59,614 bases of DNA. Source: Gemmatimonadota bacterium. GTDB lineage: Bacteria > Gemmatimonadota > Gemmatimonadetes > Palauibacterales > Palauibacteraceae. Below the pieces are notes generated by a model, which had not been told where the DNA came from, searched no databases, and saw nothing but the letters and a program-made list of their open reading frames with translations. The DNA is taken from assembly GCA_039714435.1 (NCBI GenBank), contig JBDLJJ010000003.1, forward strand, positions 1 to 59,614, read 5' to 3'. The translations under genes and the position numbers were made by a program. Shown piece after piece: positions 4,213 to 28,917 of this stretch (position 1 is its first letter; each line of letters starts with the position of its first letter).

Positions 4213-4228
4213 AGCATGCCTTGTACCT
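4213..4228 (-). promoter_or_regulatory. Putative sigma54 (-24/-12) promoter of usp-kinase-regulator operon
   Basis: Minus strand AGGTACAAGGCATGCT (GG-N10-GC). Confidence 0.55.
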
Positions 4229-4311
4229 GCCGAGCGATTTCGCGTCAGGCTCGCAATCGACTGAGTTGCTGGCACTTGGGGCTTCCGTGCAGTTAGCCCC
4301 CGGTGCGCTAC

Positions 4312-4326
4312 GGGACTATTTGTCCC
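4312..4326. promoter_or_regulatory. Palindromic operator/UAS GGGAC-N5-GTCCC
   Basis: GGGACTATTTGTCCC lies between divergent promoters. A degenerate second site, GTGGCACATTGACCC, follows immediately. Confidence 0.65.
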
Positions 4327-4454
4327 AGCAATGTGGCACATTGACCCAGTGCTGCGCTATCCCCAGATCGTCGGCCGGCCGACCAAGCCACCAAAAGCCC
4401 CGCGTGGCGCCAGCATATGAGCGCGCTTCGGGAGTTGTGCGCGTAGCGATGAAC

Positions 4455-4470
4455 GGGCACGTTCCTCGCT
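4455..4470 (+). promoter_or_regulatory. Putative sigma54 promoter of the CBS-export-ATPase operon
   Basis: GGGCACGTTCCTCGCT (GG-N10-GC, close to TGGCACG-N4-TTGCW). Confidence 0.65.
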
Positions 4471-4535
4471 CTGTGGTATCACCGACAACGGGTGTCCCCT
4501 GGATCCCTTTTTCGCTGAAGAAGCGAGGTCTGATC

Positions 4536-5090
4536 ATGGTTACTCTTCATCACGTTATGACGACCGATGTTCAAACCGTGTCGGCGCAAGCCAGCGTTCG
4601 GGAGTTGGCCGAGTTGCTCAGTGCCAATCGAATAAGCGGTTGTCCGGTTGTGGAAGGAGACCGGGTCGTGGGCGTGGTGTCGACGAGCGATCTTCTTGAA
4701 TTCGATGCCATCACACCTGGAGTTCCAGTTCTGCGTTCAGAAGACTCCCACTCCGACATATGGGCCCCCGCAGAGACGTGGCGGGAAGGAGACGAGTCAC
4801 CGTCCGCTTTCTTTATCAACTGGTGGGAGGATGCGGGAGCCGATGTAACGGTTCGCGCTACCAGTTCGGATTCGCCGGAGTGGGATCGCCTCGAAGAGCA
4901 CACGGTGGACGAGATCATGACCAGAGCCGTCTGTGCGCTGTCTGCCGATATGGGCCTCGATATGGCGGCCAGGTACATGCTCAGGGCGGGTATCCACCGG
5001 GTACTCGTTATGGATCACGAGCGTCTGCTGGGTATCGTAACCACGACGGATCTCATCAAGGCGATAGCCCAGTACGGAATCGCGGGCTAG
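4536..5090 (+). CDS. CBS domain-containing protein
   Basis: ATG at 4536 after GAGG. CBS pair (VMTTDV..ISGCPVV..GVVSTSDL; IMTRAV..IHRVLV..GIVTTTDLI) with an acidic insertion. Confidence 0.9.
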   Translation: MVTLHHVMTTDVQTVSAQASVRELAELLSANRISGCPVVEGDRVVGVVSTSDLLEFDAITPGVPVLRSEDSHSDIWAPAETWREGDESPSAFFINWWEDAGADVTVRATSSDSPEWDRLEEHTVDEIMTRAVCALSADMGLDMAARYMLRAGIHRVLVMDHERLLGIVTTTDLIKAIAQYGIAG

Positions 5091-5101
5091 CGGGCACCTC
5101 C

Positions 5102-5887
5102 GTGTGGAGCCCGTTCTGCGCCGCGATTCGATCTGTGGTCTGCGCCGGTGCCTTCACGGTTGGCGCGATAGCGGCTTTGGCCAGCCCGCTTTCCGGGCAA
5201 GAGCCACGGGAAATCGTTGACCGGGTCGACCAGCTACTACGGGGCGAATCCAGCCGGGGTGTGGTCGAGATGGAAGTGGTCAGCTCACACTGGGAACGAA
5301 CCCGGACGATGAGAATCTGGTCGCTCGGCACCGAATACGCGCTTATTCGCATTGTCTCCCCAAAAAAGGATGCCGGTACGGCCACGCTCAAGGCAGGGGA
5401 TGAGATATGGAACTACCTGCCCCGAGTCGACCGGGCGATCAAGATTCCGACGTCTCTCATGAGTTCGTCGTGGATGGGATCGCATTTCACCAACGATGAC
5501 CTCGTCAAAGAGCACCGGCTCATAGACGACTACGCGATCGAAACCTCGTATGAAGGGCTGCGGGGCACGATCGCGGTGTGGGAACTCGATCTCACTCCGT
5601 TGCCGGAAGCACCCGTCATTTGGGAGCGGATCCTGTATCAGGTGCGGAAGCGAGACTTCATGCCCGTTTGGGCGAAATTCTACGACGAACGAAACGCGCT
5701 CGTCCGAACGCTCCACTGGTCGGAGTACCGAACTATGGGTGGTCGGCTGGTACCAACGATTCTCACGGTGATTCCAGCTGACCAACCGGAGGAGCGAACG
5801 GAGATCCGATACCTCGAGCTTGAATTCGATGTCGGACTGGAGGAATCGTTTTTCTCTCTTCGCTTCCTGCGTGAGCAGGCCGACTGA
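5102..5887 (+). CDS. LolA-like outer-membrane lipoprotein-sorting protein
   Basis: Signal-peptide-like N-terminus; motifs WNYLPRVDR.IKIP.S.M..SWMGSHFTNDDLV. GTG start at 5102 is inferred. Confidence 0.85.
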   Translation: MWSPFCAAIRSVVCAGAFTVGAIAALASPLSGQEPREIVDRVDQLLRGESSRGVVEMEVVSSHWERTRTMRIWSLGTEYALIRIVSPKKDAGTATLKAGDEIWNYLPRVDRAIKIPTSLMSSSWMGSHFTNDDLVKEHRLIDDYAIETSYEGLRGTIAVWELDLTPLPEAPVIWERILYQVRKRDFMPVWAKFYDERNALVRTLHWSEYRTMGGRLVPTILTVIPADQPEERTEIRYLELEFDVGLEESFFSLRFLREQAD

Positions 5888-5888
5888 T

Positions 5889-7148
5889 ATGCGAGCAACC
5901 CCATGGCGCCGGATCGGGTGGCGTAACCTGGGTCGGAACCGGCGGCGCACACTATTTACACTCGGCGGACTGGCCATCAGTTACACGGCGGTCGTGGTGA
6001 TGGCCGGACTGGGCCGAGGTATGGTGGCGGAGATGGTGGGGAACGGCACGGGCCTATTTAGCGGCCAGATCCAGATACACGCCGCCGAGTATCTGCCAGA
6101 ACGCAGCCTGTACAGCACGATCGGAGGGCGGAGTGGGCTGAACGTGGCGGCGACCCTGGCAGCGGTCGAGGCCGACCCCTCGGTGGATGCGGCAGCGCCC
6201 AGAGTGTACGCCGGTGGATTGGTGAGTTCCGGCGAGGCCACTGTCGCCGCAGGATTCGTCGGTGTCGATTTGGCGCTCGAACCGAAGGTCTCGACGCTCC
6301 TGGAATCGGGCCTCCGCGGGCGCCACCCCAGGTCCGGCAGAAACGAACTGTGGATCGGACAAGAAATGGCTCGACAGCTTCGTGTCGAGCCGGACGATGA
6401 GATCGTGCTCGTCGCCGCGGCTGCGGACGGATCCCTCGGAAACGACCTGTTTCAGGTGGCCGGCATCTTCAGCACGGGCATCGCCGATGTCGACCGCTCT
6501 CTCGCACTGGTTCCGATCGATGCCCTTCAGACGCTTGTGGCTCTCGAGCCGGACCGAATCCACGAGGTGGCTGTTCGGCTGGCCGATCCCTGGGAGGCTC
6601 CGCCGACTGCCGTCCGGCTGAGCGCTGCTCTTGGGTCAGGCGTACTCGACTCGGAAGTCCAACCGTGGACGGAGCTGTACCCCGAGATCGTGCAGTACGC
6701 TGAACTGTTCATTTCGGTCGAGTGGCTTCTGATCGCCATCGTTTTTGTGATTGCGGTATTCGGGGTCGCCAACACGATGCTCATGGCTACGTTTGAGCGT
6801 CGGCGGGAATTCGCGCTCTTGCGAGCGTTGGGCGCCACTCCCCGGACGGTACTGAGGCTCGTGTTCACCGAAGCAGTACTGCTCGGCGGTGTGAGTCTCA
6901 TTTGCGGCATGATGATCACGTTTCCGATCCTCGTGTGGTGGCAGCACTCTCCGCCCGACATGAGCTGGCTGTACGGCGGGTTCACTATGGCGGGAGGTCT
7001 GGTGAGGCCGACCCTGCGCGTCGAGTATCCGGGTGCCATAGTGTTCACGGCGGCCATCGCCCTGTTCGCTACAGCCCTGCTGGCAGCCACTTTTCCGGCG
7101 ATACGCTCCTCGCGAGTGGCGCCGGCAGAGACTTTGATGGGGCGATGA
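5889..7148 (+). CDS. ABC transporter permease (LolC/E, MacB-FtsX type)
   Basis: WRNLGRNRRRT N-terminus, periplasmic domain, NTMLMATFERRREFALLRALGA. Confidence 0.92.
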   Translation: MRATPWRRIGWRNLGRNRRRTLFTLGGLAISYTAVVVMAGLGRGMVAEMVGNGTGLFSGQIQIHAAEYLPERSLYSTIGGRSGLNVAATLAAVEADPSVDAAAPRVYAGGLVSSGEATVAAGFVGVDLALEPKVSTLLESGLRGRHPRSGRNELWIGQEMARQLRVEPDDEIVLVAAAADGSLGNDLFQVAGIFSTGIADVDRSLALVPIDALQTLVALEPDRIHEVAVRLADPWEAPPTAVRLSAALGSGVLDSEVQPWTELYPEIVQYAELFISVEWLLIAIVFVIAVFGVANTMLMATFERRREFALLRALGATPRTVLRLVFTEAVLLGGVSLICGMMITFPILVWWQHSPPDMSWLYGGFTMAGGLVRPTLRVEYPGAIVFTAAIALFATALLAATFPAIRSSRVAPAETLMGR

Positions 7149-8416
7149 GCGTGCACGTCTCGATCCTGACTCGGCTTGCGCTACGGAATCTGCGCCGCCA
7201 GACGCGCCGTAGCCTGCTCAGCGGTCTTGCGATGGTCGTCGGCCTGGCGCTGCTCGCGTTTTCCCGTGCCCTCGCCGCCGGCGCCCACGAAGACTGGATC
7301 GAAGCCGGGGTCCGCCTGTCGGGCGGTCATGTCACGGTCGAAGCACCCCATTTTCACGCCAGGAAGACTCTGTCGTACAGGATATCGGGTGACGAATTGC
7401 GAGCGGTAAACGATGCCCTCTCGACAGCGGGCCTGGCGGCCGATGTGCGCAGCTCTGCTGTGCGGCTGGAGATACAAGGCTTGGCCAGCACAGCAGTCTC
7501 GGCCGCACCCGTCACCGTCCTGGGCGTCCAGCCCGGGTCGGAACGCGATTTTTCACATCTGGCCGAGCGCCTCATCAATGGGCGTTATCTGGCTGAGAAT
7601 GACAGACTGCACGCGTATATAGGCGAAAAGCTTGCGGAGCGTCTCGGTCTGGGCATCGATTCCCGCCTCATCCTCACTGCCCAGGATGCGGAAGGCGAGA
7701 TTAGCGGCCAGTTGACGCGGGTCGCCGGTATTTTCCGGACGGGGATTCCGGAAGTGGATGAACGACGCGTCGAGATTCCGATCGGCATGGCTCGTGAGTG
7801 GCTGGGAGCTGACGGCTCAGCGACGTCCGTCGCGCTGCTTCTGGGCTCCAGTGATAGGGTCCAGGACGTCGTAGCCAGGTTGGACCACGAGCTGTCGTCC
7901 CGGGACGCTGATCTGGAAGTGCTGACCTGGCGTGAGGCCTCGCCTGGACTGGACGCGGCGATCCGAATGGACGACTTCGGAGATTGGGTGTTCCACTCGA
8001 TAACGCTTGTAGTAGTCGCGCTCGCCGTCGTCAACACGATACTCATGTCTGTGCTGTACAGGGTTCGCGAGTTTGGCGTTGTTCGCGCTTTGGGCCTCAC
8101 ACGGACGGAGACTGGCGTCCAGGTGCTTATTGAGGGGCTTCTGCTTTCAGTCGCCAGCGGGCTGTTGGGAATAGCGCTAGGCCTTGCGCTGACCTGGATC
8201 TTCTTCCGCGACGGGCTCGATTACTCGTTTCTGCTGGAAGAGGGATTTCGGGCGGCCGGGACCATCATGGAGCCCATCGTGCGACCCCGCTTTCACGTGA
8301 GCCAGCTTATCGGCAGCCTCGCATTCGTATTCGGGATCGGTATCCTGGCCTCGGCTTACCCGGCCTTCCGGGCGACCCGGATCGAGGTGGCTGATGCCAT
8401 GAAATTCGAGGCGTGA
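7145..8416 (+). CDS. ABC transporter permease (LolC/E, MacB-FtsX type)
   Basis: LALRNLRRQTRRS, NTILMSVLYRVREFGVVRALGL. ATGA overlap with the upstream permease. Confidence 0.92.
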   Translation: MSVHVSILTRLALRNLRRQTRRSLLSGLAMVVGLALLAFSRALAAGAHEDWIEAGVRLSGGHVTVEAPHFHARKTLSYRISGDELRAVNDALSTAGLAADVRSSAVRLEIQGLASTAVSAAPVTVLGVQPGSERDFSHLAERLINGRYLAENDRLHAYIGEKLAERLGLGIDSRLILTAQDAEGEISGQLTRVAGIFRTGIPEVDERRVEIPIGMAREWLGADGSATSVALLLGSSDRVQDVVARLDHELSSRDADLEVLTWREASPGLDAAIRMDDFGDWVFHSITLVVVALAVVNTILMSVLYRVREFGVVRALGLTRTETGVQVLIEGLLLSVASGLLGIALGLALTWIFFRDGLDYSFLLEEGFRAAGTIMEPIVRPRFHVSQLIGSLAFVFGIGILASAYPAFRATRIEVADAMKFEA

Positions 8417-9144
8417 TAATGCAAGAGGGAGAACAGTCTCGAACACCAGTGCCCGCCGTTCGTACTGAGGACCTCTGGAAGATCTTCGAGCACGATGGGC
8501 AGGTGGTCGAAGCCGTAAGAGGTGTGTCTCTCACAATCGAAGCGGGCGAATTCGTTGTATTGGCCGGGCCGTCCGGCTCTGGAAAAACCACACTCCTCAA
8601 CTTGCTGGGCGGGCTTACGAGGGCTACCCGCGGCCGGGTTTGGGTCGACGGTAATGACATCACTCGTCTACCGGAACGGCAACTCGCCAAACTCAGGCTG
8701 GAGCGGTTGGGCTTCGTGTTCCAAGCCTATAATCTTCTGCCCGTCCTTACGGCACTGGAGAACGCCGAGTTTTCCTTGCTCCTCAGGGGAGTTGGAGAGA
8801 AAGAGCGCCAGGAGCGAGTGGAGGCACTTTTTGCCAGGATCGGCATCGCGGGACTGGAGGATCGACGCCCCGGGAAATTGTCGGGCGGACAGCAGCAGAG
8901 AGTTGCCGTGGCCCGAGCTGTCGTAGGACAGCCTGCCCTCGTGTTGGCCGACGAGCCGACCGCCAACCTGGACTCGGCCACCAGTGGTTCGCTGATCGAC
9001 TTGATGGCAGAACTCAACCGCGACCTCGGATCTACCTTCGTGTTCGCAACACACGATACCCAGCTAATGGAGCGGGCCAGGCGCCTCATTCGTCTCGTCG
9101 ACGGCGCGATAGTGGACGACCAGCGGGTCGAACTGGACACCTGA
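8413..9144 (+). CDS. ABC transporter ATP-binding protein (LolD-like)
   Basis: GPSGSGKT, LSGGQQQRVA, LADEPTANLD, H-loop ATHD. Confidence 0.95.
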   Translation: MIMQEGEQSRTPVPAVRTEDLWKIFEHDGQVVEAVRGVSLTIEAGEFVVLAGPSGSGKTTLLNLLGGLTRATRGRVWVDGNDITRLPERQLAKLRLERLGFVFQAYNLLPVLTALENAEFSLLLRGVGEKERQERVEALFARIGIAGLEDRRPGKLSGGQQQRVAVARAVVGQPALVLADEPTANLDSATSGSLIDLMAELNRDLGSTFVFATHDTQLMERARRLIRLVDGAIVDDQRVELDT

Positions 9145-9147
9145 GCC

Positions 9148-10335
9148 ATGTGCCCGACCCTGCTCACCGTGTTTCTGGCCGGCTTCTCGCTTCCGCCCAC
9201 ACCTCACTTGGAGGCGCAGGCTAGCGAGATTCGTGGATACGCTCTCAACGTTGCGGCTGGCACGAACTCGGGCCCCTTCACATCCTCGAACGTATCCGAT
9301 ACGCAGATCATTCGCCTGATGGCCGCTCCGGCCATAGGGCCTGTCGAGCTGGAACTGGCACATGAGCAGTTCTTGTCGTTAACGGTGGGAGAGTCGATGC
9401 CCAGCCGCTCCGATGATTTTGCCACGCCCCGAAGCGGCACTGAGTGGCTCGACCTACAGGGGACGATCGCTTCTTCGGATCGTGCTGTTTGGCGCCACCG
9501 TGTGGACCGCCTCTCCGCTCATTTCGAACTCGGCTCAGCGGCTGACCTAACGGTCGGCCGGCAACCTATCTCATGGGCCACTACCCTGATTCTCACGCCG
9601 GCCGACCCCTTTGTTCCTTTCAACGCCGAAGATCCGTTCCGCGAATACAGGACCGGTGTAGATGCGGCGCGCCTCCGTGTGTTCCCCGGGCCATTCTCCA
9701 GTCTGGATGCAGTCTTACGTGTGGCCAAGGTCGACGGCGAGGATATCGTGACGGGCCTCGCAAGAGCGCACGCGGTTGTGGCCGGCTGGGAAGTCGGGGG
9801 CTGGGCCGGATATGTTCACGAAGAAGCATCTGTGTCGCTTGCTCTGACTCGGACGTTCGCCGGGACTGCGGGCCGGGCCGAGTTCGTGGTCCGAGACCAG
9901 GAGGAATCTATCGTTTCGAGACTTGCGCTGGGCCTGGACAGAAGCTTCTCCGTATTCGGGCGAGACCTCTATGCGGTGCTCGAATACCAACGCGACGAGC
10001 TGGGTGCGGGCGATGCCTCGCAGTTCGCGTCCGTTCTTTCCAGTCGCCCATTCCGGCGCGGAGAACTCATCGTACTGGGGCGTAACACCGCTGCACTTCA
10101 AACCACATACTCGATTCACACGCTCTGGTCCACGACCCTGCTGCTTCTGTCTAACCTGGACGACCCAAGCCTGCTGTTGGCTCCCGGACTTGGCTACTCG
10201 GTTAGTGATGAAATCGTGGCCAGGGGTGGCCTGTTCTTAGGCTTGGGCCGAAACGAGACCTCTGCGGGCACTCCAGGATCAGAGTTCGGGCCGGTACCGA
10301 CCGTGGCATGGATTTCCGCGGCGGTTTTCTTCTGA
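9148..10335 (+). CDS. Putative outer-membrane beta-barrel protein
   Basis: Signal peptide, VGRQPISW and GVDA motifs typical of OMPs in LolA-like/ABC operons, C-terminal Phe. Confidence 0.7.
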   Translation: MCPTLLTVFLAGFSLPPTPHLEAQASEIRGYALNVAAGTNSGPFTSSNVSDTQIIRLMAAPAIGPVELELAHEQFLSLTVGESMPSRSDDFATPRSGTEWLDLQGTIASSDRAVWRHRVDRLSAHFELGSAADLTVGRQPISWATTLILTPADPFVPFNAEDPFREYRTGVDAARLRVFPGPFSSLDAVLRVAKVDGEDIVTGLARAHAVVAGWEVGGWAGYVHEEASVSLALTRTFAGTAGRAEFVVRDQEESIVSRLALGLDRSFSVFGRDLYAVLEYQRDELGAGDASQFASVLSSRPFRRGELIVLGRNTAALQTTYSIHTLWSTTLLLLSNLDDPSLLLAPGLGYSVSDEIVARGGLFLGLGRNETSAGTPGSEFGPVPTVAWISAAVFF

Positions 10336-13097: not shown

Positions 13098-13114
13098 CGG
13101 GACAATCTGTCCCG
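13098..13114. promoter_or_regulatory. Palindromic operator/UAS (C)GGGAC-N5-GTCCC(G)
   Basis: CGGGACAATCTGTCCCG, about 100 bp upstream of a -24/-12 motif. Confidence 0.65.
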
Positions 13115-13948: not shown

Positions 13949-13955
13949 CTAAAGG

Positions 13956-18617: not shown

Positions 18618-21600
18618 TCAGACGGTAGCTACCGCCCCCTGTTTGCGGCCGTCGAGAGTCCATTCGAGTTGTCCGCCCTCCGAGCGAAAGACTCGAATCT
18701 CGGCGGTGAGGGCGGGCGTGTGCATACGAATTTCGTATCCGGGCCAGTCGTCCGGGATGCGTGGATTGACTGAAAGGGTTTGGCCTTGCCTCTGGAGCCC
18801 CAGGATCTGCTCCACACCGAAGCGATAGAACCAGCCGGCAGCTCCCGTATACCAGGTCCAGCCGCCTCGCCCGACATACGGTGGCGCCCCGTAAACGTCT
18901 CCCGGCACGACGTACGGCTCTACTCGGTATTCCCTCGCGGCAGCCTCAGACGTGACCCGAAGAACGGGGTTGAGCATGCGAAACACGCCCACCGCCCGGG
19001 ACGACTGCCCGAGAAGGCCGAAGGCCCAGCCCGCCCAAACTGCGGCGTGGGTATACTGACCGCCGTTCTCCCGAACTCCGGGCGGATAGGCCTTGATATA
19101 GCCGGGATCGCGACTGGTCCGGTCGAAAGGAGGATGAAGGAGGAGTACGAGCGACTTCTCCGGGCGAAAGAGTAGCTGCGCGACCGATTCCATAGCGCGG
19201 TTCTGCCGCTCCGTTTCGGCCCCTCCCGCGAGCACGGCCCAGGCCTGGCTGATGAGGTCAATTTTGCCCTCGCGACTCGACGAAGATCCCAGCGGCGTCC
19301 CGTCCCCATAGTAGGCGCGCCGGTACCAGTCACCGTCCCAGGAAGTCTCCTCGATCCGGTCGATCAGCTCCGCGGCGCGGTCCTGGAAGACAGCGGACTG
19401 CTCAGAATCGCCCTGTAGGTCACACATCGTGGCAAACTCGCGTAGCGTAGCTGCCAAAAACCATCCCAGCCAAACGCTCTCTCCGTCGCCGGCGGCGCCT
19501 ACCCGATCCAGTCCGTCGTTCCAATCACCTGAACCGATCAGCGGCAGACCATGAGAACCGTGTGTGTCGGCCTTCCGGAGGGCCCTCAGGCAGTGCTCGT
19601 ACAACGTCTCCGGCGAGGATGATGCCACGTAACGGCCGTAACGATCTCCTTCAGAATCCCGCAGCGGCTCCGCTTCGATAAATCCCGCCAACTCGTCGAG
19701 AATCGCGGCGTCTCCGGTCCGCTGCACGTAGGTGGCCGTTGCGTACGGAAGCCAGACCAGGTCATCGCTGCATCGGGTCCGGACCCCGACCTCAGTTTCA
19801 GGATGCCACCAGTGAAGTACGTCGCCTTGCGAAAACTGGTGGCGAGCGGCAGCCAGTATATGCTCTCGTGCGTGGGAGGGTGCCAGATCAAGCAGGCTCA
19901 GGACGTCCTGGAGTTGATCGCGAAAACCGAACGCCCCCGACGATTGATAATAGCCGGTTCGACCCCAGAGCCGAGAGTTGATCACCTGGTAAGGCAGCCA
20001 GCGGTTCAGCATGATGTCCATAGCCGGTTCCGGCGTACTGACAGTGACCGAGCCGAGTAGCCGATCCCAGTACCGCTTGATACCATTCCGGGTGGACCGA
20101 ATCATGGAAGGGCGACTGAAGCGCCGGGCCAGTTGGATCGCGGCGGACCGCGTCTCGGCTTGCCCAAGAACAAAATGGAGCGATCGGCTCGCGCCAGCCG
20201 GTAGGTCGATGTGCACCTGATAGGCGGCGCACACATCCCCGTCCGGCTGAATTCTCCCCGACAGTCCGATCCTGAACAGGCTGCCTGGCTTCGCGAAGTC
20301 GCCCTCTGCGCCGAGGAATTCCTTTCGGTCCGTCGTTACTCCGTGCGCCGGTTCGCTGGATGTGAGGAAGGCATATCGCTCACTCCACGCCAGTGAGTAG
20401 GGATTCCTTACGAGCAGAGTCTGGGTGCTTCCGTCGAATTCAGGCAACAGGTGCCGCGAGGAGTTAGCACGCGAAGAACCGAGAACCAACTCGGCGAAAT
20501 AAGTGATGGTGAAACGCCGAGGTCTACGCCACTGATTGGTAAGAGTGAGTTCCACGATTTTCGCCGAATCCTCCAGAGCGCAGAAGATCCGCATTCGCTG
20601 CTCGAGCCCGTGGCTGTTTTGGCGGAACGTCGCGTAGCCTGCGCCGTATCGCACCTCTCTAGGCACATCAGGGCCAGCGGGTCTCTGGGTCGCCGACCAG
20701 ACTTGGCCCGTTTCTTCATCCCGCAGATATACGGCCTCCGATACCTCGTCCAGGACAGGATCATTACGCCACGCCGTCAGCCGGTTCTCGGAGCTGTTAG
20801 TCGCCCATGTGTAGCCGCCGCCACCCTCGGTTACCAGGCACCCAAACTCGGGATTCGCCAGCACGTGGGCCCACGGCGCCGGCGTCGTCTGACCCGGGTC
20901 CAGCCGAATCACGTACTCCTCTCCGCCGGAAGCAAAGCCTCCGAGACCACAATCGAACTCCAGCGCTTCTTCCCGATCTAAGGGCACCGTCGGCTCTGGC
21001 GCGAGCGGAGACGACGGTACCGGAACGAAGGCTGGCAGCCCGGCCGGAGTTTCTTCCAGTCGCGTCAGCTGATCGGCTAGCGTGCCACCCGTGGCGTCGA
21101 GAAACACGGAGGCGGCCGACTCGATGAAGGCCAGATCATCAGGCTGGACCTGCTCAGCGGTCACGATATGAATGCCGCCGGGGGAGGCCAGCCAATCGAT
21201 GCTTCCGCTCTCTGCCAAAGCAGCCCGCAGCGCATCCCGGGCTGGCTGTGCGTACCCGCTGGAGGCCAGGTCCTCGAGCACGAGATCGATGGCCACACCT
21301 TTCTGTCGCCAGTACGCGTGTGCTCTCAGAAGTGTCCGGGCCATCTCCAATTCCTCGGGATGCCCGAGCCGGAGTACAAGCAGCGGGAGGTCACCAGAGA
21401 TCCCAAATCGCCACAGCTCCGCTTGTGGTGCCGCGCTCACTGAACGCACATCTGCCGGAGCCCGTAGTCCGTGCCCTCCCTGGATGAGCGCCGACAGGAG
21501 ACGCTGGAAATCCTGGTGTTCCGAGGGATGTAGACCGAGCGCGGCGAGCTCTTCCTCAGCCATTTGTCGCGCACTCTCAAAGGCCCACGCACACCTCGTC

Positions 21601-24600
21601 AGCGATCGGTACTCTTCGATTCGCGCCAAGACATCCTCCTCGTTCCTACCGACCGCCGTGAGGCAGGCGAATTCGGTAGTCGCGTACGGGGGCAACCTGA
21701 ACTCGGCGCTCAGGGCCACGATGGGATCGAGGGGAGCTCCTCGCTTGCCGGACAGCTCAGCCTTTCCCCGGGCAAGGGCTTCAGGCCGAGCGCTGCTTCC
21801 GCTTCGGCCGAGAAACACCTCCCGACTCAATTCCCATGTAGAGGAGAGTCCGTCACCGTCATCGCCGACCAGGGCCTGGGCGAGATACGCACTCGGTTCT
21901 TCGGGCGACTTAGGTCGTCGCCTGTACACAACACATCCGGGGTTCCGCCGGTATTCTCCCTCCAGGAACAGCTTCGAGTACGCCGGGTGACGAAGGTCTT
22001 CGTCCCCCGATCCAAGCACGATTTCGGCATAGCTGACAGCCGCCAGCCGGCGAGTTTTGTCACTTTCGTTAGTGATCGTGAGACGGCGGATCTCCACGTC
22101 CGCATCAGGCGGAATCGTGATTCGCAGGTGAGAGGAGATCTGATGGTCCCGCCGGTTGAGCGCCGCCATATGGGGCCAGTACTCCGCGCTGACATCCCCC
22201 TCGGAGCTGCCGGTCGGCGCACGTCCCGCGGACCACAGGGCTCCAGAGTCCAGGTCGAGGAGGTACAGCCACTGGCCCTGGCACTCGCGAACCGCGTCAG
22301 GTTGCCAGCGGGTTATGGCCATGTCTTCCCACCAGCTTCCTCCCCCACCGCCGTCCGAGAGAGTGACGCGGTATCGTCCATTGGACAGGGTATGGAGACT
22401 CGCCATCGGTCCGCCCGGAGATGGACTCCACGACTCGAGCGCCACCACCCGCGACGGGCCCTTTGGAAGCGCGCCCTCCCTGGCCGCCCAGTCTGGTCGC
22501 ACCGGCACCCGCCACGGGAGGCCCTCGTGAAGGAGATACTCGACCGCTGCCATCCGAGGATCGGTGTGAAACCTGCGAATGAGAACGTCATCGTGAAGAA
22601 GGTTGTCCAGCGCGGCCAGGATCATCCCCTGATGGTGCGCCATATAGGCACGAATCACGGTCGGAGACGAGGTAGATTCGCCCTGTGAGCCAAAGTCCAG
22701 GGATTCATACATTCCCCAGCGTCCCTTCGCGCCCAGGTGGACGAGTCCCTCCACGTTTCGGGATGCTTTCAAAGGTGCGTACGGAAGCGCCAGAAAGCTG
22801 GCGTAAGGGGCTACGACCCGGCGCTCTCCCAGACCGCGTCGTAGGCCGAGACCAGGCACGCCGAAGGCGCGATACTGATATGAGTCGCCGTCGCCGCGGT
22901 GTCCGTACGCAGACTCCGAGGCCCCCCATGGAATACCATGGCGGCGTCCGAAGTTCATATGTTCGCGCACCGCCTGCCTGGAACTGTGCGCGAGCAGCGA
23001 GGTCGGCGGGGACCGCATGAAGACTGCCGGCAGAAGGTACTCGAACATCGTGGCGCTCCAGGAAAGCAGTACGGGCGATCGGCCCACAAGTCCGAAAGCG
23101 CGGCCTAACTGAAGCCAGTGAGACGACGGGAGATCTCCTTTCGCGATGCCGACGTAACTCGCCAGGCGCGCCTCTGACGCCAACAGATCGTAGTAATGGG
23201 GATCGAGCTCCTCCGCAGTCACCTGATATCCGATGTGAAGCAGCCGTCGAGACCGGTCATACAGAAAACCGAAATCCATCTCTTCGATCTGCACTGTGCA
23301 CCGATCAGTCAGTTCATCCAGACTGTCGAGCAGTCGCTTCGACTCCGCAATCGATCGAGCCAGTTCGGAGCGCAGTCCTTCGCACCACGTGACGATACAC
23401 TGCACCGAGTCCGCGTCGAAGGCGCCCGCCCGGACAACGTCCTCAAGGCGCGTCGCGTGCTCCTGGGCCTTCGACGCCATTGAGGGCACGTCGAGTGGCG
23501 AAACCGACCTCAAGAGCACCGTTCGCAGATCCGACCAGATCCGCTCCACCCGGGCCGATTCGTAGCTCCGCAAGGACGCGCCGCCGGCAAAAAGACTCGG
23601 GGGCGCAGCCAGGGATGCTGTCCAAGGATCCAGAGCGCTGCGTTCCGCGTCCCACAGATCGAGCTGGCGGTGGAGTTGGGAGAGCCAGTCACGCAGCTCG
23701 TGGATCGCCGCCCTGTTCATACTTGAATGCTCTGCGAGAGAGACTGCGCTCTCATCGATGGCGGGTAGCAGGCGCTCTCGTAGTTCCAGGTGCAGCGACA
23801 CAAATTCCAGCGCATCTGATCCGGCCAGCTGACACGCCCCGTCCAGATCTATCAAGAGGTCGTGTAGCCTTCGGGCGGCGTCCGTATGAGCGGCGGGGCC
23901 AGACTCGACAAAACGGGAGAAGGTCTGCGCAACATCCATGACTCCCCGGGAATCGACCGGACGAATCACCGGTACTCTGGCGGCGTCGAGCAGAGTTCTG
24001 CGCAGAACCACGAGAGCGGCGGCGTAGTTGCCGCTGTCCACGGACGAGACGTAGCGCGGTTCGAGCGGGCGTAAGTCCTCGGTACTATACCAATTGAGCA
24101 GATGCCCCCGGTACGATTCGAGTTGATCCACGCTGTCGAGCACGTTGCGGACCCTCGATTCCAGCGACAGCAAACCCACGTAGCCCATGTCATACGCGGC
24201 CACCAGCGAAGTCAACAGCATGCCGATATTCGTCGGCGAGGTGCGGCGCGCGAGAGCAGGCTCCCGGTCCTCCTGCCAGTTGTCAGGCGGAAGGAAGTGA
24301 TCCTCGGCCGTCACGAATTGGTCGAAGAACAGCCATGTCCGTAAGGCAATCTCCCGCAGCAGCCACTCGGCCTGGGCGGGAATCTCTCGACGCCGGCTGG
24401 GAATCGGGCGGCTGAGAAGGAATGCCACCGCTGGCGACGCCGTCCACGCTCCGAAAAAGGCCAGACTCACGCCAGGCAAGTTGCCAAGTACCGACCACAA
24501 CCAGAAGGCTCCGCCTACACCTACGAGAGGCGCCACGATCATGCGCCTCCAATGTCCGAACAAGCCCCCGTGGGCCCGGAGCGCTCGGCGCGACGCGGCC

Positions 24601-27200
24601 TCCGGCGTCCACTCCAGAAGGTGCCGCCGCGTGATCCACAAACGTGCCAGGGTTCGAAGAATGGCGTCCAGCGCGATCCATGCCTCGTACGGAAGAAACA
24701 CCCCGGCCAGAACCCACCGGCCGAGGTTTGCGGCGAGCCCGGTCCGGCCGTGGGAGGTATGCTTGCGGCCGCCCTCGCTCCTGTCGTCGGAGCGGGCAAC
24801 GTGGATGAACCGGCGAGTCGCCGTGGCCGCCCCGAGAAGTGCAGGAAAGCCTAGAACGACCATAGCGCCTACGGCCCAGCGCCAGGGAGGGCCAAGACCA
24901 AGGAACCACCCGAAGAGAAGCATGGCCATCAGGGATGGAGCCAGCAAGCTGCGACGGAGGTTGTCCCAAATCTGCCACCTGGAGATCGGTCGCAGCTGAT
25001 TCCGAATGCGAGGCCCCGCGGCCGACGGCACCCGGGGCATGAGCCAGGGAAGAAGCTGCCAGTCGCCTCGTACCCAGCGATGCAGACGACGCATGTATGC
25101 CAGTGGCTGATCCGGGAAGTCCTCCAGCAGAATCACGTCGCCCAGAAAACCGCAACGTCCGTGGGCGCCCTCGAACAGGTCGTGACTGAGCAGGCGGTTG
25201 TCGGGCACGCGTCCGGCCAGGCTCGCCTCGAACGCCCGCACGTGGAAGATCCCCTTCCCCGCGTAGATGCCCTCCGCGAACACGTCCTGGTAAACATCCG
25301 AGATCGCGTGTGTGTAGAGGTCGAGGCCGGAAGGAACTCTCCCCAGCCACGCGAACAGAGTCGGCCGACCTGGATCCAGAATCGTCTCCAGCCGCGGCTG
25401 AAGAACCGTGTAGCCGGCCACTACGCGATCCTCTTCAGTCAGCACGGGCTCGTTGAGCGGGTGAGCCATGGCCCCGATCATTCGCTCCACGGAGCCCCGT
25501 GGAAGACCCGTATCGCGGTCGAGGGTGATCACGTATTTCGTGGCCTCCAGGCCGGTGCGGGATCCTGCCATCAGAACCAGGCCCCCATCATCCACTCCCA
25601 TGAGCAGGCGGCTCAGTTCTATCAGCTTGCCCCTCTTACGCTCCCATCCCATCCAGCGCCCCTCGTGCTGATTCCACTGACGCTCCCTATGGAAGAGGAG
25701 AAACGGAGGCTCGCCATCGGTCTGGTGGCGGCGGTTCAACAGAAGCACTCCCTGGCGTGCTCTTTCCAGGAGTTCGTCCTCTTCAGGCAGATGCTTGAAA
25801 TCCGCGTCCTGAAAATCGGTGAGGAGCGTGAAGCGCAGGCGGCGCAGGCCCGTGCTTTGATAGAGAACCTCCAGATGCTCCAGAAGCTGATCCAACTCGT
25901 GCGCGTCGCCGATGAGCACCGGCAGGGCGACCAGAGTGGTACAGTCTTCGGGCACTTCGTCGCGAATCCTCAGCTTCGGCAAGACTCGAGCTGGTACCGA
26001 GTGTGAGACGATCCAGTTGAGCAAGCTTCCGGCCACCGTCAGGCCGGGGACCACGCCGCTGGCCAGCACCATGATCCGTGCACTCAGCGGCACGCCAGGC
26101 ACGCCGACAAGGAGCCACAGAGCTGCCGCGATGAGAAGCGTTAGTGTGACCACGACGCCTGTGTACAACGGGAATGCATGGCGCCGAACCCATCTGCTCA
26201 CTCGCTTCCTGGTACGGGGTCGGCAGGCCACGTGGAGTTCGAGTTCAGTACGACCTTCGGCTATGAGATAGAAGCCGACGTGTCCGCTTCTGGACTCTGT
26301 CTTGGTATCCCTACGGCTGAGCAGGACTACCGCTCCCGCGACTCCCTCCTCGCTCCACCCGGAATCGACTGCGACCTCGGCCAACACCTGCCTGTAACGA
26401 TCACGAGTAGCAAAATCCATACGCTCATAGATGCTACTGGGATCTTCACGAAGTGTTTTCTCGACCAGGCTGGTCGCGTCGAAGAACTCTCGCCAGTTCA
26501 TTCCGCCAATAAGCCGCAGACTCCCGATACAATTGGCAAGGGTCATCCAGGATGGTTGGCTCCTGGGCGGCCAATCCGGGATAGCGGTCATCGTCTCGAT
26601 CTCTAGCGCCCGTTCGGCCCCGGAGACGAGAGTCTCCAGCAGGGCGAGCTGGAGAGCTGCCGGCAGTGTCCATAGCTCGACCATTCTGAGCGGAGCGATG
26701 CTCTGATAGGCGTTGACGAAACCGACCAGAGCATCGGCATCCAGCTGCTGAGAAAGGTACTGAAGGACGCCGGCGCCAACGGCTTGCACGCGAGCCTCGG
26801 AACCTCCACCCGCACTCTCTAACCGCGGGAGTTGGCGAGAAAGGTCTCGGGCTCCCGCATCCTGTACGTCCCGCAGGGCGGATTGGATCACGTGTTCGTT
26901 GTCGAGGAGCCACTCGGCCGCGCGTGGCGCGCGTACCTCCGCCTCGGAGGTTTCTCTGAATCGGCGATAGACGACTTCGAGGCGGGGACGAAGGCTTCGT
27001 AGCCTTAGTGCGAAGCTGGGGCGGCGGCCGCGCCCGGAAGTTGTCTTGTGACGCTGGGCGAGTTCGCGGGCTATGCGCTCAAGCGCACCTCCCTCTCGGA
27101 CCTCACCCACCGGCACCGTTGTGCATAAGCTGGACTGGCCCGTGCAACTCCGCACAAGAGGGCACCTCACTTGGCACCCGCGCGCGAACCTGGGAGGCAT
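18618..27200 (-). CDS. ndvB: Cyclic beta-1,2-glucan synthase (GT84 + glucoamylase-like + GH94 phosphorylase), Cgs/NdvB family
   Basis: About 2.8 kaa; WMGWERKRGKL, LLSHDLFEG, RLHRWVRGDWQL, RTSPTNIG, YDLLASEARL, YQSSGAFGFRDQLQD, GDWNDG, RENGGQYTH. The true start is likely the GTG near 27110, overlapping the usp end. Confidence 0.94.
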   Translation of the reverse strand: MPPRFARGCQVRCPLVRSCTGQSSLCTTVPVGEVREGGALERIARELAQRHKTTSGRGRRPSFALRLRSLRPRLEVVYRRFRETSEAEVRAPRAAEWLLDNEHVIQSALRDVQDAGARDLSRQLPRLESAGGGSEARVQAVGAGVLQYLSQQLDADALVGFVNAYQSIAPLRMVELWTLPAALQLALLETLVSGAERALEIETMTAIPDWPPRSQPSWMTLANCIGSLRLIGGMNWREFFDATSLVEKTLREDPSSIYERMDFATRDRYRQVLAEVAVDSGWSEEGVAGAVVLLSRRDTKTESRSGHVGFYLIAEGRTELELHVACRPRTRKRVSRWVRRHAFPLYTGVVVTLTLLIAAALWLLVGVPGVPLSARIMVLASGVVPGLTVAGSLLNWIVSHSVPARVLPKLRIRDEVPEDCTTLVALPVLIGDAHELDQLLEHLEVLYQSTGLRRLRFTLLTDFQDADFKHLPEEDELLERARQGVLLLNRRHQTDGEPPFLLFHRERQWNQHEGRWMGWERKRGKLIELSRLLMGVDDGGLVLMAGSRTGLEATKYVITLDRDTGLPRGSVERMIGAMAHPLNEPVLTEEDRVVAGYTVLQPRLETILDPGRPTLFAWLGRVPSGLDLYTHAISDVYQDVFAEGIYAGKGIFHVRAFEASLAGRVPDNRLLSHDLFEGAHGRCGFLGDVILLEDFPDQPLAYMRRLHRWVRGDWQLLPWLMPRVPSAAGPRIRNQLRPISRWQIWDNLRRSLLAPSLMAMLLFGWFLGLGPPWRWAVGAMVVLGFPALLGAATATRRFIHVARSDDRSEGGRKHTSHGRTGLAANLGRWVLAGVFLPYEAWIALDAILRTLARLWITRRHLLEWTPEAASRRALRAHGGLFGHWRRMIVAPLVGVGGAFWLWSVLGNLPGVSLAFFGAWTASPAVAFLLSRPIPSRRREIPAQAEWLLREIALRTWLFFDQFVTAEDHFLPPDNWQEDREPALARRTSPTNIGMLLTSLVAAYDMGYVGLLSLESRVRNVLDSVDQLESYRGHLLNWYSTEDLRPLEPRYVSSVDSGNYAAALVVLRRTLLDAARVPVIRPVDSRGVMDVAQTFSRFVESGPAAHTDAARRLHDLLIDLDGACQLAGSDALEFVSLHLELRERLLPAIDESAVSLAEHSSMNRAAIHELRDWLSQLHRQLDLWDAERSALDPWTASLAAPPSLFAGGASLRSYESARVERIWSDLRTVLLRSVSPLDVPSMASKAQEHATRLEDVVRAGAFDADSVQCIVTWCEGLRSELARSIAESKRLLDSLDELTDRCTVQIEEMDFGFLYDRSRRLLHIGYQVTAEELDPHYYDLLASEARLASYVGIAKGDLPSSHWLQLGRAFGLVGRSPVLLSWSATMFEYLLPAVFMRSPPTSLLAHSSRQAVREHMNFGRRHGIPWGASESAYGHRGDGDSYQYRAFGVPGLGLRRGLGERRVVAPYASFLALPYAPLKASRNVEGLVHLGAKGRWGMYESLDFGSQGESTSSPTVIRAYMAHHQGMILAALDNLLHDDVLIRRFHTDPRMAAVEYLLHEGLPWRVPVRPDWAAREGALPKGPSRVVALESWSPSPGGPMASLHTLSNGRYRVTLSDGGGGGSWWEDMAITRWQPDAVRECQGQWLYLLDLDSGALWSAGRAPTGSSEGDVSAEYWPHMAALNRRDHQISSHLRITIPPDADVEIRRLTITNESDKTRRLAAVSYAEIVLGSGDEDLRHPAYSKLFLEGEYRRNPGCVVYRRRPKSPEEPSAYLAQALVGDDGDGLSSTWELSREVFLGRSGSSARPEALARGKAELSGKRGAPLDPIVALSAEFRLPPYATTEFACLTAVGRNEEDVLARIEEYRSLTRCAWAFESARQMAEEELAALGLHPSEHQDFQRLLSALIQGGHGLRAPADVRSVSAAPQAELWRFGISGDLPLLVLRLGHPEELEMARTLLRAHAYWRQKGVAIDLVLEDLASSGYAQPARDALRAALAESGSIDWLASPGGIHIVTAEQVQPDDLAFIESAASVFLDATGGTLADQLTRLEETPAGLPAFVPVPSSPLAPEPTVPLDREEALEFDCGLGGFASGGEEYVIRLDPGQTTPAPWAHVLANPEFGCLVTEGGGGYTWATNSSENRLTAWRNDPVLDEVSEAVYLRDEETGQVWSATQRPAGPDVPREVRYGAGYATFRQNSHGLEQRMRIFCALEDSAKIVELTLTNQWRRPRRFTITYFAELVLGSSRANSSRHLLPEFDGSTQTLLVRNPYSLAWSERYAFLTSSEPAHGVTTDRKEFLGAEGDFAKPGSLFRIGLSGRIQPDGDVCAAYQVHIDLPAGASRSLHFVLGQAETRSAAIQLARRFSRPSMIRSTRNGIKRYWDRLLGSVTVSTPEPAMDIMLNRWLPYQVINSRLWGRTGYYQSSGAFGFRDQLQDVLSLLDLAPSHAREHILAAARHQFSQGDVLHWWHPETEVGVRTRCSDDLVWLPYATATYVQRTGDAAILDELAGFIEAEPLRDSEGDRYGRYVASSSPETLYEHCLRALRKADTHGSHGLPLIGSGDWNDGLDRVGAAGDGESVWLGWFLAATLREFATMCDLQGDSEQSAVFQDRAAELIDRIEETSWDGDWYRRAYYGDGTPLGSSSSREGKIDLISQAWAVLAGGAETERQNRAMESVAQLLFRPEKSLVLLLHPPFDRTSRDPGYIKAYPPGVRENGGQYTHAAVWAGWAFGLLGQSSRAVGVFRMLNPVLRVTSEAAAREYRVEPYVVPGDVYGAPPYVGRGGWTWYTGAAGWFYRFGVEQILGLQRQGQTLSVNPRIPDDWPGYEIRMHTPALTAEIRVFRSEGGQLEWTLDGRKQGAVATV

Positions 27201-28116
27201 CCTGGAATACTAATAGCGGTTTTCGACCGTATGTAATCAGGTTGGTAGCCACGGAGCCGTACTCCCACTCGGAGTCGCCCGAAGCTCCGTGGGCGCTTGC
27301 CACGATCAGGTCTACGTCCTCCTCTTCCGCCACCTTGTGAAGGATCTTCGGAACGTTATCGGTGACCACAAGCCGGGTGCGGACTCGGAGGCGCTCACCT
27401 TCCAGTTTTCGCTTCATGTCGTCCAGGTATCGGCGCGCCGCTCGCCGGTTGGCCCGGACTAGTCTTCTACGCGCTTCTGCCTCGTGCTCAGCGGGTGGCA
27501 AGCGTCGCGGCATGTCTGGGATCTCGACCGCAAAGACAATCAGGAGGTCTGCCTGGAGCTCCCGCGCGATGCTGCCGGCGAGGCATAGCGCCCAGTCCGC
27601 TAGAGGCGACCCGTCGACCGGAACCATGATCCGTCGGTATGGATCATCAAACTCCAGCGCTAAGCCGCTTGCTGCTCGGACGAGTAGTATCGACGTGTCA
27701 CCACCACTGACGACTTTTTGTGCCACGGCTCCGAGACGCAGCGCGCTCCCACCCTCACCCTTGTCGCTTACTACAATCAGATCGATACTCTCACGCCTCG
27801 CGAAGTCACGAATCTGTTCCGCGGGCCGGCCTTCCAGAACGACAACATCTACCGGCAGATTCCTGGCCTGAAGAGCGGCCGCTTTCTCCTCCAGGTAGCA
27901 GGCAGCCTCCGCGCGACGAAGCCGAAGATCTACGTTGATAGGATCCGGTGTTCCAGACTCGGAGTGGACCACATTCAAGAAAATCGTCTCTGCCTCGTGA
28001 GCCGACGCGATCGCGGCCACGTGAGGAAGCACGCACTCCGCCAGGGTGGATCCGTCTAGTGGAACCAGAATACGTTGAATCAAAGATCCTCCTCCTGGTT
28101 CTGACGATGAATTCAC
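27103..28116 (-). CDS. Universal stress protein, tandem Usp domains
   Basis: ILVPLDGS.LAE, IMVPVDGS, DLIV.SAHG...GSVA. Confidence 0.92.
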   Translation of the reverse strand: MNSSSEPGGGSLIQRILVPLDGSTLAECVLPHVAAIASAHEAETIFLNVVHSESGTPDPINVDLRLRRAEAACYLEEKAAALQARNLPVDVVVLEGRPAEQIRDFARRESIDLIVVSDKGEGGSALRLGAVAQKVVSGGDTSILLVRAASGLALEFDDPYRRIMVPVDGSPLADWALCLAGSIARELQADLLIVFAVEIPDMPRRLPPAEHEAEARRRLVRANRRAARRYLDDMKRKLEGERLRVRTRLVVTDNVPKILHKVAEEEDVDLIVASAHGASGDSEWEYGSVATNLITYGRKPLLVFQDASQVRARVPSEVPSCAELHGPVQLMHNGAGG

Positions 28117-28253
28117 GCTGCTTCACCAGGCCGTCCGCAGGCGCTGCACTACATTACTACATTGCGCCTGGATGCCAACTACGCAAATGCCTGGCGAAGC
28201 AGACGTGAATCCTTAGCTAAGCCCTAATTCGCCGGCTTATACTGCAGCCTCGC

Positions 28254-28727
28254 CTACTTGGCTGCCTTGATCGCGATGCGGCGTCCCTTCGCCTCCGCCG
28301 TCTTGGGCATGTGAACGGTCAGGATACCGTTATCGAACTCGGCCTTGATCGCGTCCACCTTGACGGTGCTGGGCAGCGAGAACGTTCTCGAGAACTCGCC
28401 GAAGCGACGCTCCCAGATCCGCATGCGCCGATCTCCCTTGACCTCTTCCTTCTCGTACTCGTCCTTCTTGTTCCCGTGCAGAGTGAGGATGTTGCCTTCG
28501 ACTTCGATGTCGACATCCTCGTCCGTCATCCCCGGCAACTCCGCCGTGAGGAACAACTCATCATCCGTCTCCTCGACATCGACGATTGGCGCCCATGCCA
28601 GAGGAAGCGGGTCCGCGAAAGTGGGCTCGAACATGGATCGAATACGATCCTCCAGGTTGCCGAAGTCGCGCCATGGCGACACCGGAACGTTCCGGGAAGC
28701 CCATCGAGTTGGAACCAGGCTTACCAT
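28254..28727 (-). CDS. Hsp20/alpha-crystallin small heat shock protein
   Basis: ATG at 28727 after GGAGG; AELPGM...ERRFGEFSRTFSLP...AEFDNGILTV.MPK. Confidence 0.95.
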   Translation of the reverse strand: MVSLVPTRWASRNVPVSPWRDFGNLEDRIRSMFEPTFADPLPLAWAPIVDVEETDDELFLTAELPGMTDEDVDIEVEGNILTLHGNKKDEYEKEEVKGDRRMRIWERRFGEFSRTFSLPSTVKVDAIKAEFDNGILTVHMPKTAEAKGRRIAIKAAK

Positions 28728-28803
28728 GATATCCTCCAGTCTGAGGGGTGTGATGTGGACCTTGGGTGGTCCATTCAGCGGATGGGCCGCCAATTTTTTC
28801 TTA

Positions 28804-28819
28804 TGCGGGTTTCGTACCT
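28804..28819 (-). promoter_or_regulatory. Putative sigma54 promoter of hsp20
   Basis: Minus strand AGGTACGAAACCCGCA (GG-N10-GC). Confidence 0.6.
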
Positions 28820-28902
28820 CCGGGGCGCCAACCAGCGACAGATGGATGTGCCGTTCTGGCCGCGATTTGCGAGGCAGCGTAGTGGAGGCTCGCCCAGGGT
28901 GT

Positions 28903-28917
28903 GAGTCAGGCTGTCCC
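28903..28917. promoter_or_regulatory. Degenerate GGGAC-N5-GTCCC UAS
   Basis: GAGTCAGGCTGTCCC (minus strand GGGACAGCCTGACTC), about 85 bp upstream of the hsp20 -24 element. Confidence 0.5.

Follow-up and report, generated by a model that had tools for sequence, protein, structure and literature searches.

The stretch of DNA analysed in this work, here called the window, comprises 59,614 nucleotides from a Gemmatimonadota bacterium of the family Palauibacteraceae (assembly GCA_039714435.1, contig JBDLJJ010000003.1) and is one entire contig of a 2.87-Mb genome in 222 contigs. Between positions 722 and 28727 it carries a stress island of 28 kb in which a response regulator of the bacterial enhancer-binding protein (bEBP) class and a sensor kinase are encoded together with universal stress proteins (USP), CBS-domain proteins, an exporter, a P-type ATPase, archease and RtcB, an Hsp20 protein and a large glucan enzyme (Table 1). 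A preliminary description of this DNA had reported a recurring palindrome, GGGAC-N5-GTCCC, upstream of −24/−12 elements of the kind used by sigma-54, and had proposed it as the binding site of the regulator; this palindrome and the regulon that it may define are the subject of the present analysis. The gene map from 722 to 29991 was drawn from Pfam annotation. For the Hsp20 gene the start was moved to the ATG at 28727, upstream of which a GGAGG is found. Sizeable gaps between opposed or successive transcription units coincide solely with the four control regions named earlier. In the following, G000 is the genome of the window, other G-numbers denote related genomes, L-numbers their loci and C-numbers contigs.

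Table 1. Genes, palindromic sites and sigma-54-like elements of the island. Transcription units assigned to promoters are predicted; distances are counted from the centre of the palindrome up to the first G in the −24 GG
Feature	Position	Strand	Sequence	Distance (nt)	Remarks
bEBP (REC + Sigma54_activat + HTH_8)	722-2140	-			Pfam
Sensor kinase (PAS + HisKA_3 + HATPase_c)	2137-3213	-			Pfam
Tandem universal stress protein USP2a	3221-4138	-			First gene of USP-kinase-bEBP operon; Pfam Usp 1.2e-63, two stretches
CBS pair, LolA-like, two FtsX permeases, ABC ATPase, one protein without Pfam match, P-type ATPase	4536-13097	+			Pfam
Alpha/beta hydrolase + SDH-type protease	13271-14774	+			Pfam
Archease-RtcB-USP operon	14799-17181	-			Pfam Archease 6.1e-25, RtcB 1.2e-172, Usp 4.7e-17
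Phosphoribosyltransferase + CBS	17464-18594	+			Pfam
Operon of Hsp20, tandem USP and 2860-aa GH94 glucan enzyme	18618-28727	-			Pfam
Palindrome 1	4312-4326		GGGACTATTTGTCCC		Exact; common to divergent promoters P1 and P2
Weaker second site	4333-4347		GTGGCACATTGACCC		9/12; 21 nt from palindrome 1
Palindrome 2	13099-13113		GGGACAATCTGTCCC		Exact; 6-bp arms, GGGACA ATC TGTCCC
Half-perfect site	17293		GGGACAAAACGGCAC		9/12; one perfect half, two mismatches
Half-perfect site	17326		CGGTCAGAATGTCCC		10/12; one perfect half, two mismatches
Palindrome-like site 4	28903-28917		GAGTCAGGCTGTCCC		10/12; one perfect half, two mismatches
P1	4213-4228	-	AGGTACAAGGCATGCT	92 (palindrome 1)	8/12; predicted for USP2a-kinase-bEBP
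P2	4455-4470	+	GGGCACGTTCCTCGCT	137 (palindrome 1)	10/12; predicted for CBS-to-P-type-ATPase operon, 4536-13097
P3	13215-13230	+	AGGCACGACCAGTGCT	110 (palindrome 2)	10/12; predicted for hydrolase and protease genes, 13271-14774
P4	17213-17228	-	AGGCACGGAATCCGCA	73 (17293), 106 (17326)	9/12; predicted for archease-RtcB-USP
P5	17417-17432	+	CGGCCTGAATGTAGCT	118 (17293), 85 (17326)	8/12, ranked weakest of the six; predicted for phosphoribosyltransferase + CBS
P6	28804-28819	-	AGGTACGAAACCCGCA	92 (28903)	8/12; predicted for Hsp20 and the genes after it

Judged by its domains, the protein encoded at 722-2140 is a standard NtrC-class bEBP. Pfam finds Response_reg (7.5e-27), Sigma54_activat (5e-68) and HTH_8 (8.6e-17), and the translation contains a GSFTGA loop, which we take to be an accepted variant of the GAFTGA-type loop. 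The sigma factor itself is encoded on contig C17 of the same genome, where a 490-amino-acid (aa) open frame matches Sigma54_DBD (7e-62, 208.7 bits). Since the regulator has all three domains and the loop, and the genome encodes sigma-54, every part of a sigma-54 switch is present. The regulator stays below every equivalog cut-off of NCBIfam, the best being AtoC with 451 bits against a cut-off of 714, and the RtcR model NF038308 reaches 330.6 against 650. Its best matches in the PDB are the NtrC-family proteins NtrC1/NtrC4 of Aquifex (4l4u, 4.8e-100, and 1ny5), and its receiver domain is NtrC1-like. Named relatives are paralogue-level matches only, with at most 46% identity, many of them from Gemmatimonadales.

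The kinase gene overlaps the start of the bEBP gene with its 3' end by 4 nucleotides (nt). A HisKA_3 kinase is thereby paired with an NtrC-type receiver; kinases of this type usually partner NarL-type regulators. Among named proteins of solved structure, the haem-PAS sensors FixL and DosP are nearest to the PAS domain of the kinase (E 1.8e-7 to 4.5e-6), and the only solved PAS domain that scores better belongs to the multi-sensor kinase 10jx. His79 of the kinase aligns with a histidine of the FixL chains, presumably the proximal haem ligand, and does not vary among six orthologous kinases. With loci L027 and L035 included in the comparison, the kinase beside the regulator is of the HisKA type both in G013 and in the order's second family, where an additional GAF-GAF-HisKA kinase follows the regulator gene.

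All five copies of the palindrome that had been reported are present, two of them exact and three with one perfect half. In shuffled windows the mean number of exact copies was 0.17 and none of 100 shuffles reached two. The 6-bp arms of the copy at 13099 are likewise as described. The motif as first proposed is exact at 4312 and 13099, and its consensus is better written as GGGACA-N3-TGTCCC with the core G[G/T]GACA..TGTC[C/A]C. Scored against the twelve arm positions of this longer form, the copy at 13099 is the only 12/12 match of the genome; by home-made gene calls, 4312 and 13099 are also the only intergenic ones among six exact N5 palindromes genome-wide. The hexamers TGTCCC/GGGACA occur seven times in the 1,402 intergenic nt between 722 and 30383 as against six times in the 28,260 genic nt. 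The sites at 17293 and 17326 stand inverted to each other (17293-17340). Together they make up the outer arms of an imperfect palindrome of 66 nt (17285-17350) that is centred on GGATCC and lies symmetrically between P4 and P5.

Sigma-54 elements were scored against the 12 positions of TGGCACG-N4-TTGCW. The six GG-N10-GC(A/T) elements proposed in the preliminary description were found at their positions and on their strands, and five of them indeed have GG(C/T)AC. Distances from the palindromes had been put at about 65-130 bp, a range typical of bEBP enhancers, and measure 73-137 nt over all six promoters. Across the genome, sigma-54-like sites with at least 10/12 matches, the level that P2 and P3 attain, are enriched about 3-fold in intergenic DNA and those with 11/12 about 10-fold. 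Strings with at least 8/12 matches are found about twice per kb in genes and intergenic DNA alike, which bears out the caution voiced earlier that bare GG-N10-GC is common; the four control regions, with 1,021 nt in total, should contain about two. No sigma-70-like promoter was detected in the control regions, the sole match in the 14 kb scanned being located inside a gene.

Every palindromic 5-mer dyad with a spacer of 0-10 and no more than one mismatch was listed blind, the earlier motif playing no part in the search. GGACA-N3-TGTCC, which has the same register as GGGAC-N5-GTCCC, came out as the top dyad in the control regions of the window (3 of 4) and again as the top dyad in the 330 nt upstream of the regulator orthologues of 12 other genomes (7 of 12), compared with a background of 8 in 841 intergenic regions of G000. 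The set of 12 left out L023, which is of the same genus as L022, and L040, for which no site was seen in the 420 nt examined and a 10/12 site lies further upstream. The combination of palindrome and promoter is also concentrated in the island. Among the 231 intergenic sigma-54-like sites with at least 9/12 matches, five lie in the island and 226 elsewhere; a palindrome of at least 10/12 stands 45-170 nt upstream of three of the five, but of only three of the 226.

Comparison with related genomes shows a footprint at the USP2a promoter, where palindrome and promoter are conserved together at a fixed spacing. Upstream of the USP2a orthologues a palindrome-like site and a −24/−12 element of the GGTAC type recur 93 (G022), 94 (G003) and 84 nt (G016) apart, the corresponding spacing to P1 in G000 being 92 nt. 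In the alignment of the four promoters the palindrome and the GGTAC-N..-TGC blocks are conserved and the remainder has diverged (mean column identity 64%); a weaker G-rich block 21 nt beyond the palindrome is also conserved in G022, G003 and G016. The site pair at 17293 and 17326, with its offset of 32 nt, is present in G022 as well. The regulator gene of the closest syntenic loci is preceded by an upstream region of its own, which contains G[G/T]G.CA-N3-TGTC[C/A]C, often twice, and then a sigma-54-like element; the latter follows the site in L022, L023, L025, L026, L028, L029, L030, L031 and L032. Positive autoregulation had been predicted from the window, and in most of the family's related genomes the regulator gene is in fact immediately preceded by a palindrome with a sigma-54 promoter.

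The site also follows the regulator gene across genomes. Relatives of the regulator separate at a gap in E-value into orthologues (at most 3.9e-139, at least 52% identity) and paralogue-level matches (at least 7.9e-116). An orthologue is encoded in 30 genomes, G000 included, and 11 genomes have paralogue-level matches only. Exact GGGACA-N3-TGTCCC was found in 14 of the 30 genomes with an orthologue (19 sites, two of which, in G010, are identical, lie near contig ends and may be one site) and in none of the 11 without; for a reversed control pattern the figures were 6 of 30 and 1 of 11. Fifteen exact sites outside G000 were examined for neighbouring promoters: six of them have a sigma-54 element of at least 9/12 pointing away at a distance of 50-200 nt, against an expectation of about 0.06 per site; two of these six occupy one equivalent position in two congeneric genomes. 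In a sample of 201 genomes of the phylum an orthologue at E ≤ 1e-135 was detected in only 13 when eight candidates per genome were scored.

On these grounds it is likely that GGGACA-N3-TGTCCC is the upstream activator sequence of the REC-AAA+-HTH_8 protein encoded at 722-2140 and serves six sigma-54 promoters, among them that of the regulator's own operon. An AAA+ domain with a GAFTGA-type loop, rpoN, −24/−12 elements and a dyad 70-150 bp upstream of them, the hallmarks of a bEBP regulon, are all found here. In the proposed mechanism the PAS-HisKA_3 kinase would phosphorylate the receiver domain of the regulator, which would then assemble 75-140 bp upstream of the −24/−12 promoters, on one dyad or on two, and, using ATP, would open sigma-54 holoenzyme complexes at the six promoters in the four control regions. 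Between 722 and 28727 no transcription unit would be left without one of these promoters, and because P1 is predicted to drive the USP2a-kinase-bEBP operon, the switch would include positive feedback. Low oxygen is a plausible signal since the partner kinase has a FixL-like PAS domain. Taking the resemblance to FixL and DosP together with the additional genes of related islands (see below), we tentatively put forward oxygen or redox/energy limitation as the most likely signal.

Several observations weigh against this assignment. The protein is linked to the palindrome by co-location and co-occurrence only; the recognition helix was tried as a discriminator and discarded, as DRRTLYRKLK is found in orthologues both with and without a detectable site. 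Genome-wide, exact palindromes with N5 (six) are not commoner than those with N4 (four) or N6 (five). The motif exceeds its background in its exact copies; with up to two mismatches allowed it does not, since 30 copies in the window compare with 56.8 expected and the pattern is under-represented. Because this looser pattern is not enriched, the degenerate copies cannot rest on counts alone. Likewise P1 (4213, minus strand), P5 (17417, plus strand) and P6 (28804, minus strand) reach only 8/12, which is the level of chance frequency. For the degenerate palindromes and these three weakest promoters the support comes from position and conservation rather than from the score. A clear site precedes archease-RtcB only in G000 and G022; in G016 the site is weak (9/12) and in G013 it was not seen. 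Since it varies in this way among relatives, membership of the regulon is labile. Distant orthologues, which come from the other families of this class and share 54-59% identity, showed no convincing site nearby. Sites of at least 10/12 were noted in three of seven enlarged loci of such orthologues and rejected: two overlap the kinase start codon and none has a well-placed canonical −24/−12 element. Finally, the gene calls are crude and stem from a home-made codon-usage caller, and related genomes are not independent samples, so that the comparative counts are indicative and are not to be taken as probabilities.

The distribution of the site among RtcB genes was followed beyond these genomes. 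In relatives without the regulator no site was seen upstream of archease-RtcB, and at 80 RtcB loci from many phyla palindrome matches remained at background level and were mostly inside the gene; the palindrome is therefore not a general feature of RtcB. In L033-L037, which belong to the second family of the order, a conserved sigma-54-like element, TGGTACG-N4-YGTGCW, is directed back into the USP gene from about 190 nt beyond its stop codon (for example L035, 14738-14753). There is no open reading frame (ORF) downstream of it, and it may be a promoter for antisense or small RNA.

Among other explanations, the one that survives best would make the palindrome the operator of a different protein, a DosR/NarL-type regulator or a repressor encoded elsewhere, that lies near sigma-54 promoters by coincidence. 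The kinase carries HisKA_3, a domain which usually goes with NarL-type regulators, the gene content of the island resembles the DosR regulon, and G000 encodes three genes with a GerE domain. Moreover, the GGGAC half-site is identical to that of the mycobacterial DosR box TTSGGGACTWWAGTCCCSAA (PMC2275270). The spacer, however, is N5 and not N4, and the four exact N4 copies of the genome are all on other contigs. None of the GerE genes is in the window (they are on C13, C64 and C16), and the gene which the kinase gene overlaps is that of the bEBP and not of a NarL-type protein. Furthermore, the site tracks the bEBP gene across genomes, with exact sites only where a bEBP orthologue is encoded, and it keeps an enhancer-type distance to −24/−12 elements. 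A DosR-type operator was rejected on spacing, regulator family (HTH_8 rather than GerE/LuxR) and linkage, and we regard this whole explanation as improbable.

It is far less probable still that two exact palindromes and some half-matches arose by chance in GC-rich intergenic DNA beside common GG-N10-GC strings and have no function. The shortage of matches with up to two mismatches, the lack of a genome-wide preference for N5 and the abundance of weak sigma-54-like strings would fit such an origin. On the other hand, chance accounts neither for two exact copies, which none of the shuffles produced, nor for the first rank of the dyad in an independent set of orthologous regions, its conserved position in diverged promoters and its phyletic profile (14/30 against 0/11). 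That the palindromes act as RNA or DNA hairpins, either terminators or transcript-stabilising stems, and not as protein-binding sites is equally remote: the copy at 13099 begins 2 nt after the ATPase stop codon and 17285-17350 folds far better than its shuffles (z = -3.9), but shuffled sequences fold as well as the hairpins at 13099 and 4312 do (z = -0.63, -1.99, -1.23), no T-run terminator was called at any site, the sites at 4312 and 17293/17326 lie between divergent promoters and therefore have nothing to terminate, and the sequence of the arms is conserved across genomes beyond their pairing; this explanation was rejected on the fold z-scores and the lack of a T-run terminator.

If the palindrome is read as the activator site of the bEBP, the closest published system, by analogy, is NmpRSTU of Myxococcus xanthus. 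NmpR is an NtrC-like protein for which electrophoretic mobility shift assays and reporters show binding to tandem GCGCA-N5-TGCGC upstream of sigma-54 promoters; it regulates, among other genes, those of a CBS-domain protein, a USP and a P-type ATPase; the pathway begins at a haem-dependent kinase and its expression rises in hypoxia (PMC11841059). The 5-N5-5 geometry of the dyad and the regulatory logic are equal to those of the island. In contrast, the half-site is GCGCA and not GGGAC, the phylum is another one, and a four-protein phosphorelay with HisKA kinases takes the place of the single PAS-HisKA_3 kinase adjoining the regulator; neither GCGCA-N5-TGCGC nor a multi-kinase phosphorelay is found in the island. 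Compared by description, the island adds RtcB-archease, Hsp20, the GH94 enzyme and the exporter.

The DosR regulon of Mycobacterium tuberculosis comprises USPs, alpha-crystallin/Hsp20 and a CBS protein. We take Rv2631 to be an RtcB homologue, Rv1997 a P-type ATPase and Rv0571c a phosphoribosyltransferase, functions that match genes of the island. The likeness extends to the half-sites, a sensor kinase of the HisKA_3 type and a similar set of genes, to which the islands of relatives contribute an eRF1-like protein and a hibernation factor. The two halves of the DosR box, GGGAC and GTCCC, are joined by an N4 spacer, and the regulon includes Rv2631, Rv2626c, Rv1997, Rv0571c, Rv2623 and Rv2031c (PMC2275270). 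DosR differs in being a NarL/LuxR-type regulator that works with sigma-70-type promoters, N4 and a GAF sensor, whereas the island has an AAA+ bEBP with a Fis-type helix-turn-helix (HTH), −24/−12 elements, N5 and a PAS sensor; neither a GerE/LuxR-type HTH nor a GGGAC-N4-GTCCC box characterizes the island. The resemblance to the DosR box is most simply explained by convergence or coincidence.

In enteric bacteria NtrC, the partner of NtrB, acts from dyad enhancers about 100 bp upstream of −24/−12 promoters, and the operon of the regulator is autoregulated. The three-domain architecture, the enhancer layout and the autoregulated operon of NtrB-NtrC and of Aquifex NtrC1/NtrC4 resemble what is seen or predicted in the island; recognition sequence, signal and targets of NtrC differ, and the partner kinase of the island is of the HisKA_3 type. 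RtcR of Escherichia coli, which controls rtcBA from a sigma-54 promoter, is a bEBP with a CARF domain as its sensor and does not belong to the response regulators. Transcription of RtcB from a sigma-54 promoter under a dedicated bEBP is predicted for the island as well, where RtcB would be a single target among many and the bEBP part of a two-component system. As for oxygen sensing by FixL-FixJ, FixJ is a LuxR-type regulator. The PAS domain of the island kinase aligns with the haem-PAS of FixL, with a histidine in the presumed column of the proximal ligand. The predicted output differs from that of FixL-FixJ in being a bEBP, and the best solved PAS match is 10jx and not FixL. A survey of sigma-54 reports that USPs are enriched among predicted targets in Planctomycetia; Gemmatimonadota are not mentioned in its main text (PMC12316311). 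In the literature searched, which did not cover supplementary tables, we found no transcriptional regulon and no bEBP site of this sequence for Gemmatimonadota, and there was no relevant bEBP site with TGTCCC/GGGACA among the matches listed.

Further members of the regulon, whose existence elsewhere in the genome had been suggested, were searched for; three sites, C49:8495, C2:31526 and C7:14080, came up as candidates only and none was accepted. On C49 an 11/12 sigma-54 promoter at 8407 (minus strand) has the palindrome-like GGAACTACATGTCCC (10/12, locus L122) 95 nt upstream, at 8495. Its predicted target is a 798-aa MacB/FtsX permease with MerR-TPR, Ku and LigD genes as neighbours, and this would be a possible member outside the island. 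The only 12/12 sigma-54 consensus of the genome, at 31438 (minus strand) on C2, likewise has a palindrome-like site of 10/12 at 31526, 95 nt upstream (L123); downstream there is only a 76-aa ORF, and no Rfam match was obtained. The palindrome-like site at C7:14080 has no sigma-54 element. Just beyond the island, a strong sigma-54-like promoter (30018-30033, TGGCACGTATCTAGCA, 11/12) precedes a small lipoprotein-like ORF without Pfam match (30064-30383). The sole palindrome-like site near it (29985, 10/12) stands 27 nt upstream, which is nearer than enhancers usually are, and the promoter may be either the seventh of the island or that of another regulator.

Other features concern the gene content of the island. 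A 395-aa protein (9148-10335) in the exporter/ATPase operon matches neither Pfam nor NCBIfam and has counterparts at the same position in G022 and G003 (51-52% identity). The best named relatives of RtcB come from Gemmatimonadales, Gemmatimonadaceae and Gemmatimonadetes metagenome-assembled genomes (68-73% identity). The GC content of the island does not stand out. Related islands (L022, L025) additionally encode acetate kinase, PEP synthase/PPDK, an acid phosphatase, an eRF1-like (baeRF) protein, a ribosome hibernation factor with S30AE and cold-shock domains, and DUF5335. The acetate kinase gene of L022 is preceded by a palindrome-like site (7264). Neither the orthologue of the regulator nor RtcB was found in the same-genus genomes G001 and G002, which are 88 and 90% complete, and for this reason the 28-kb island looks accessory.

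Most likely, the system described here is an ordinary kind of bacterial switch in a little-studied phylum. Because its mechanism is textbook, it adds a regulon and an enhancer motif that are new without introducing any new principle. What the sequence offers is a complete regulatory model for the island, with sensor kinase, activator, site, six promoters and about 20 genes. Beyond this, it is conceivable, if rather doubtful, that the island is the sigma-54 counterpart of the actinobacterial DosR dormancy regulon, in which a DosS-type HisKA_3 kinase with a FixL-like haem-PAS would have been rewired onto an NtrC-type activator and the GGGAC half-sites would have converged on the DosR box. Were this so, the island would be an accessory 28-kb programme for hypoxia or energy stress that is switched through enhancers, its kinase and regulator would form an unusual pair, and one survival gene set would stand under two unrelated promoter systems. 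With NmpR and DosR alongside it, the set of USP, Hsp20, CBS and RtcB genes under predicted sigma-54 control bears on the question of how dormancy-type programmes are assembled and rewired.

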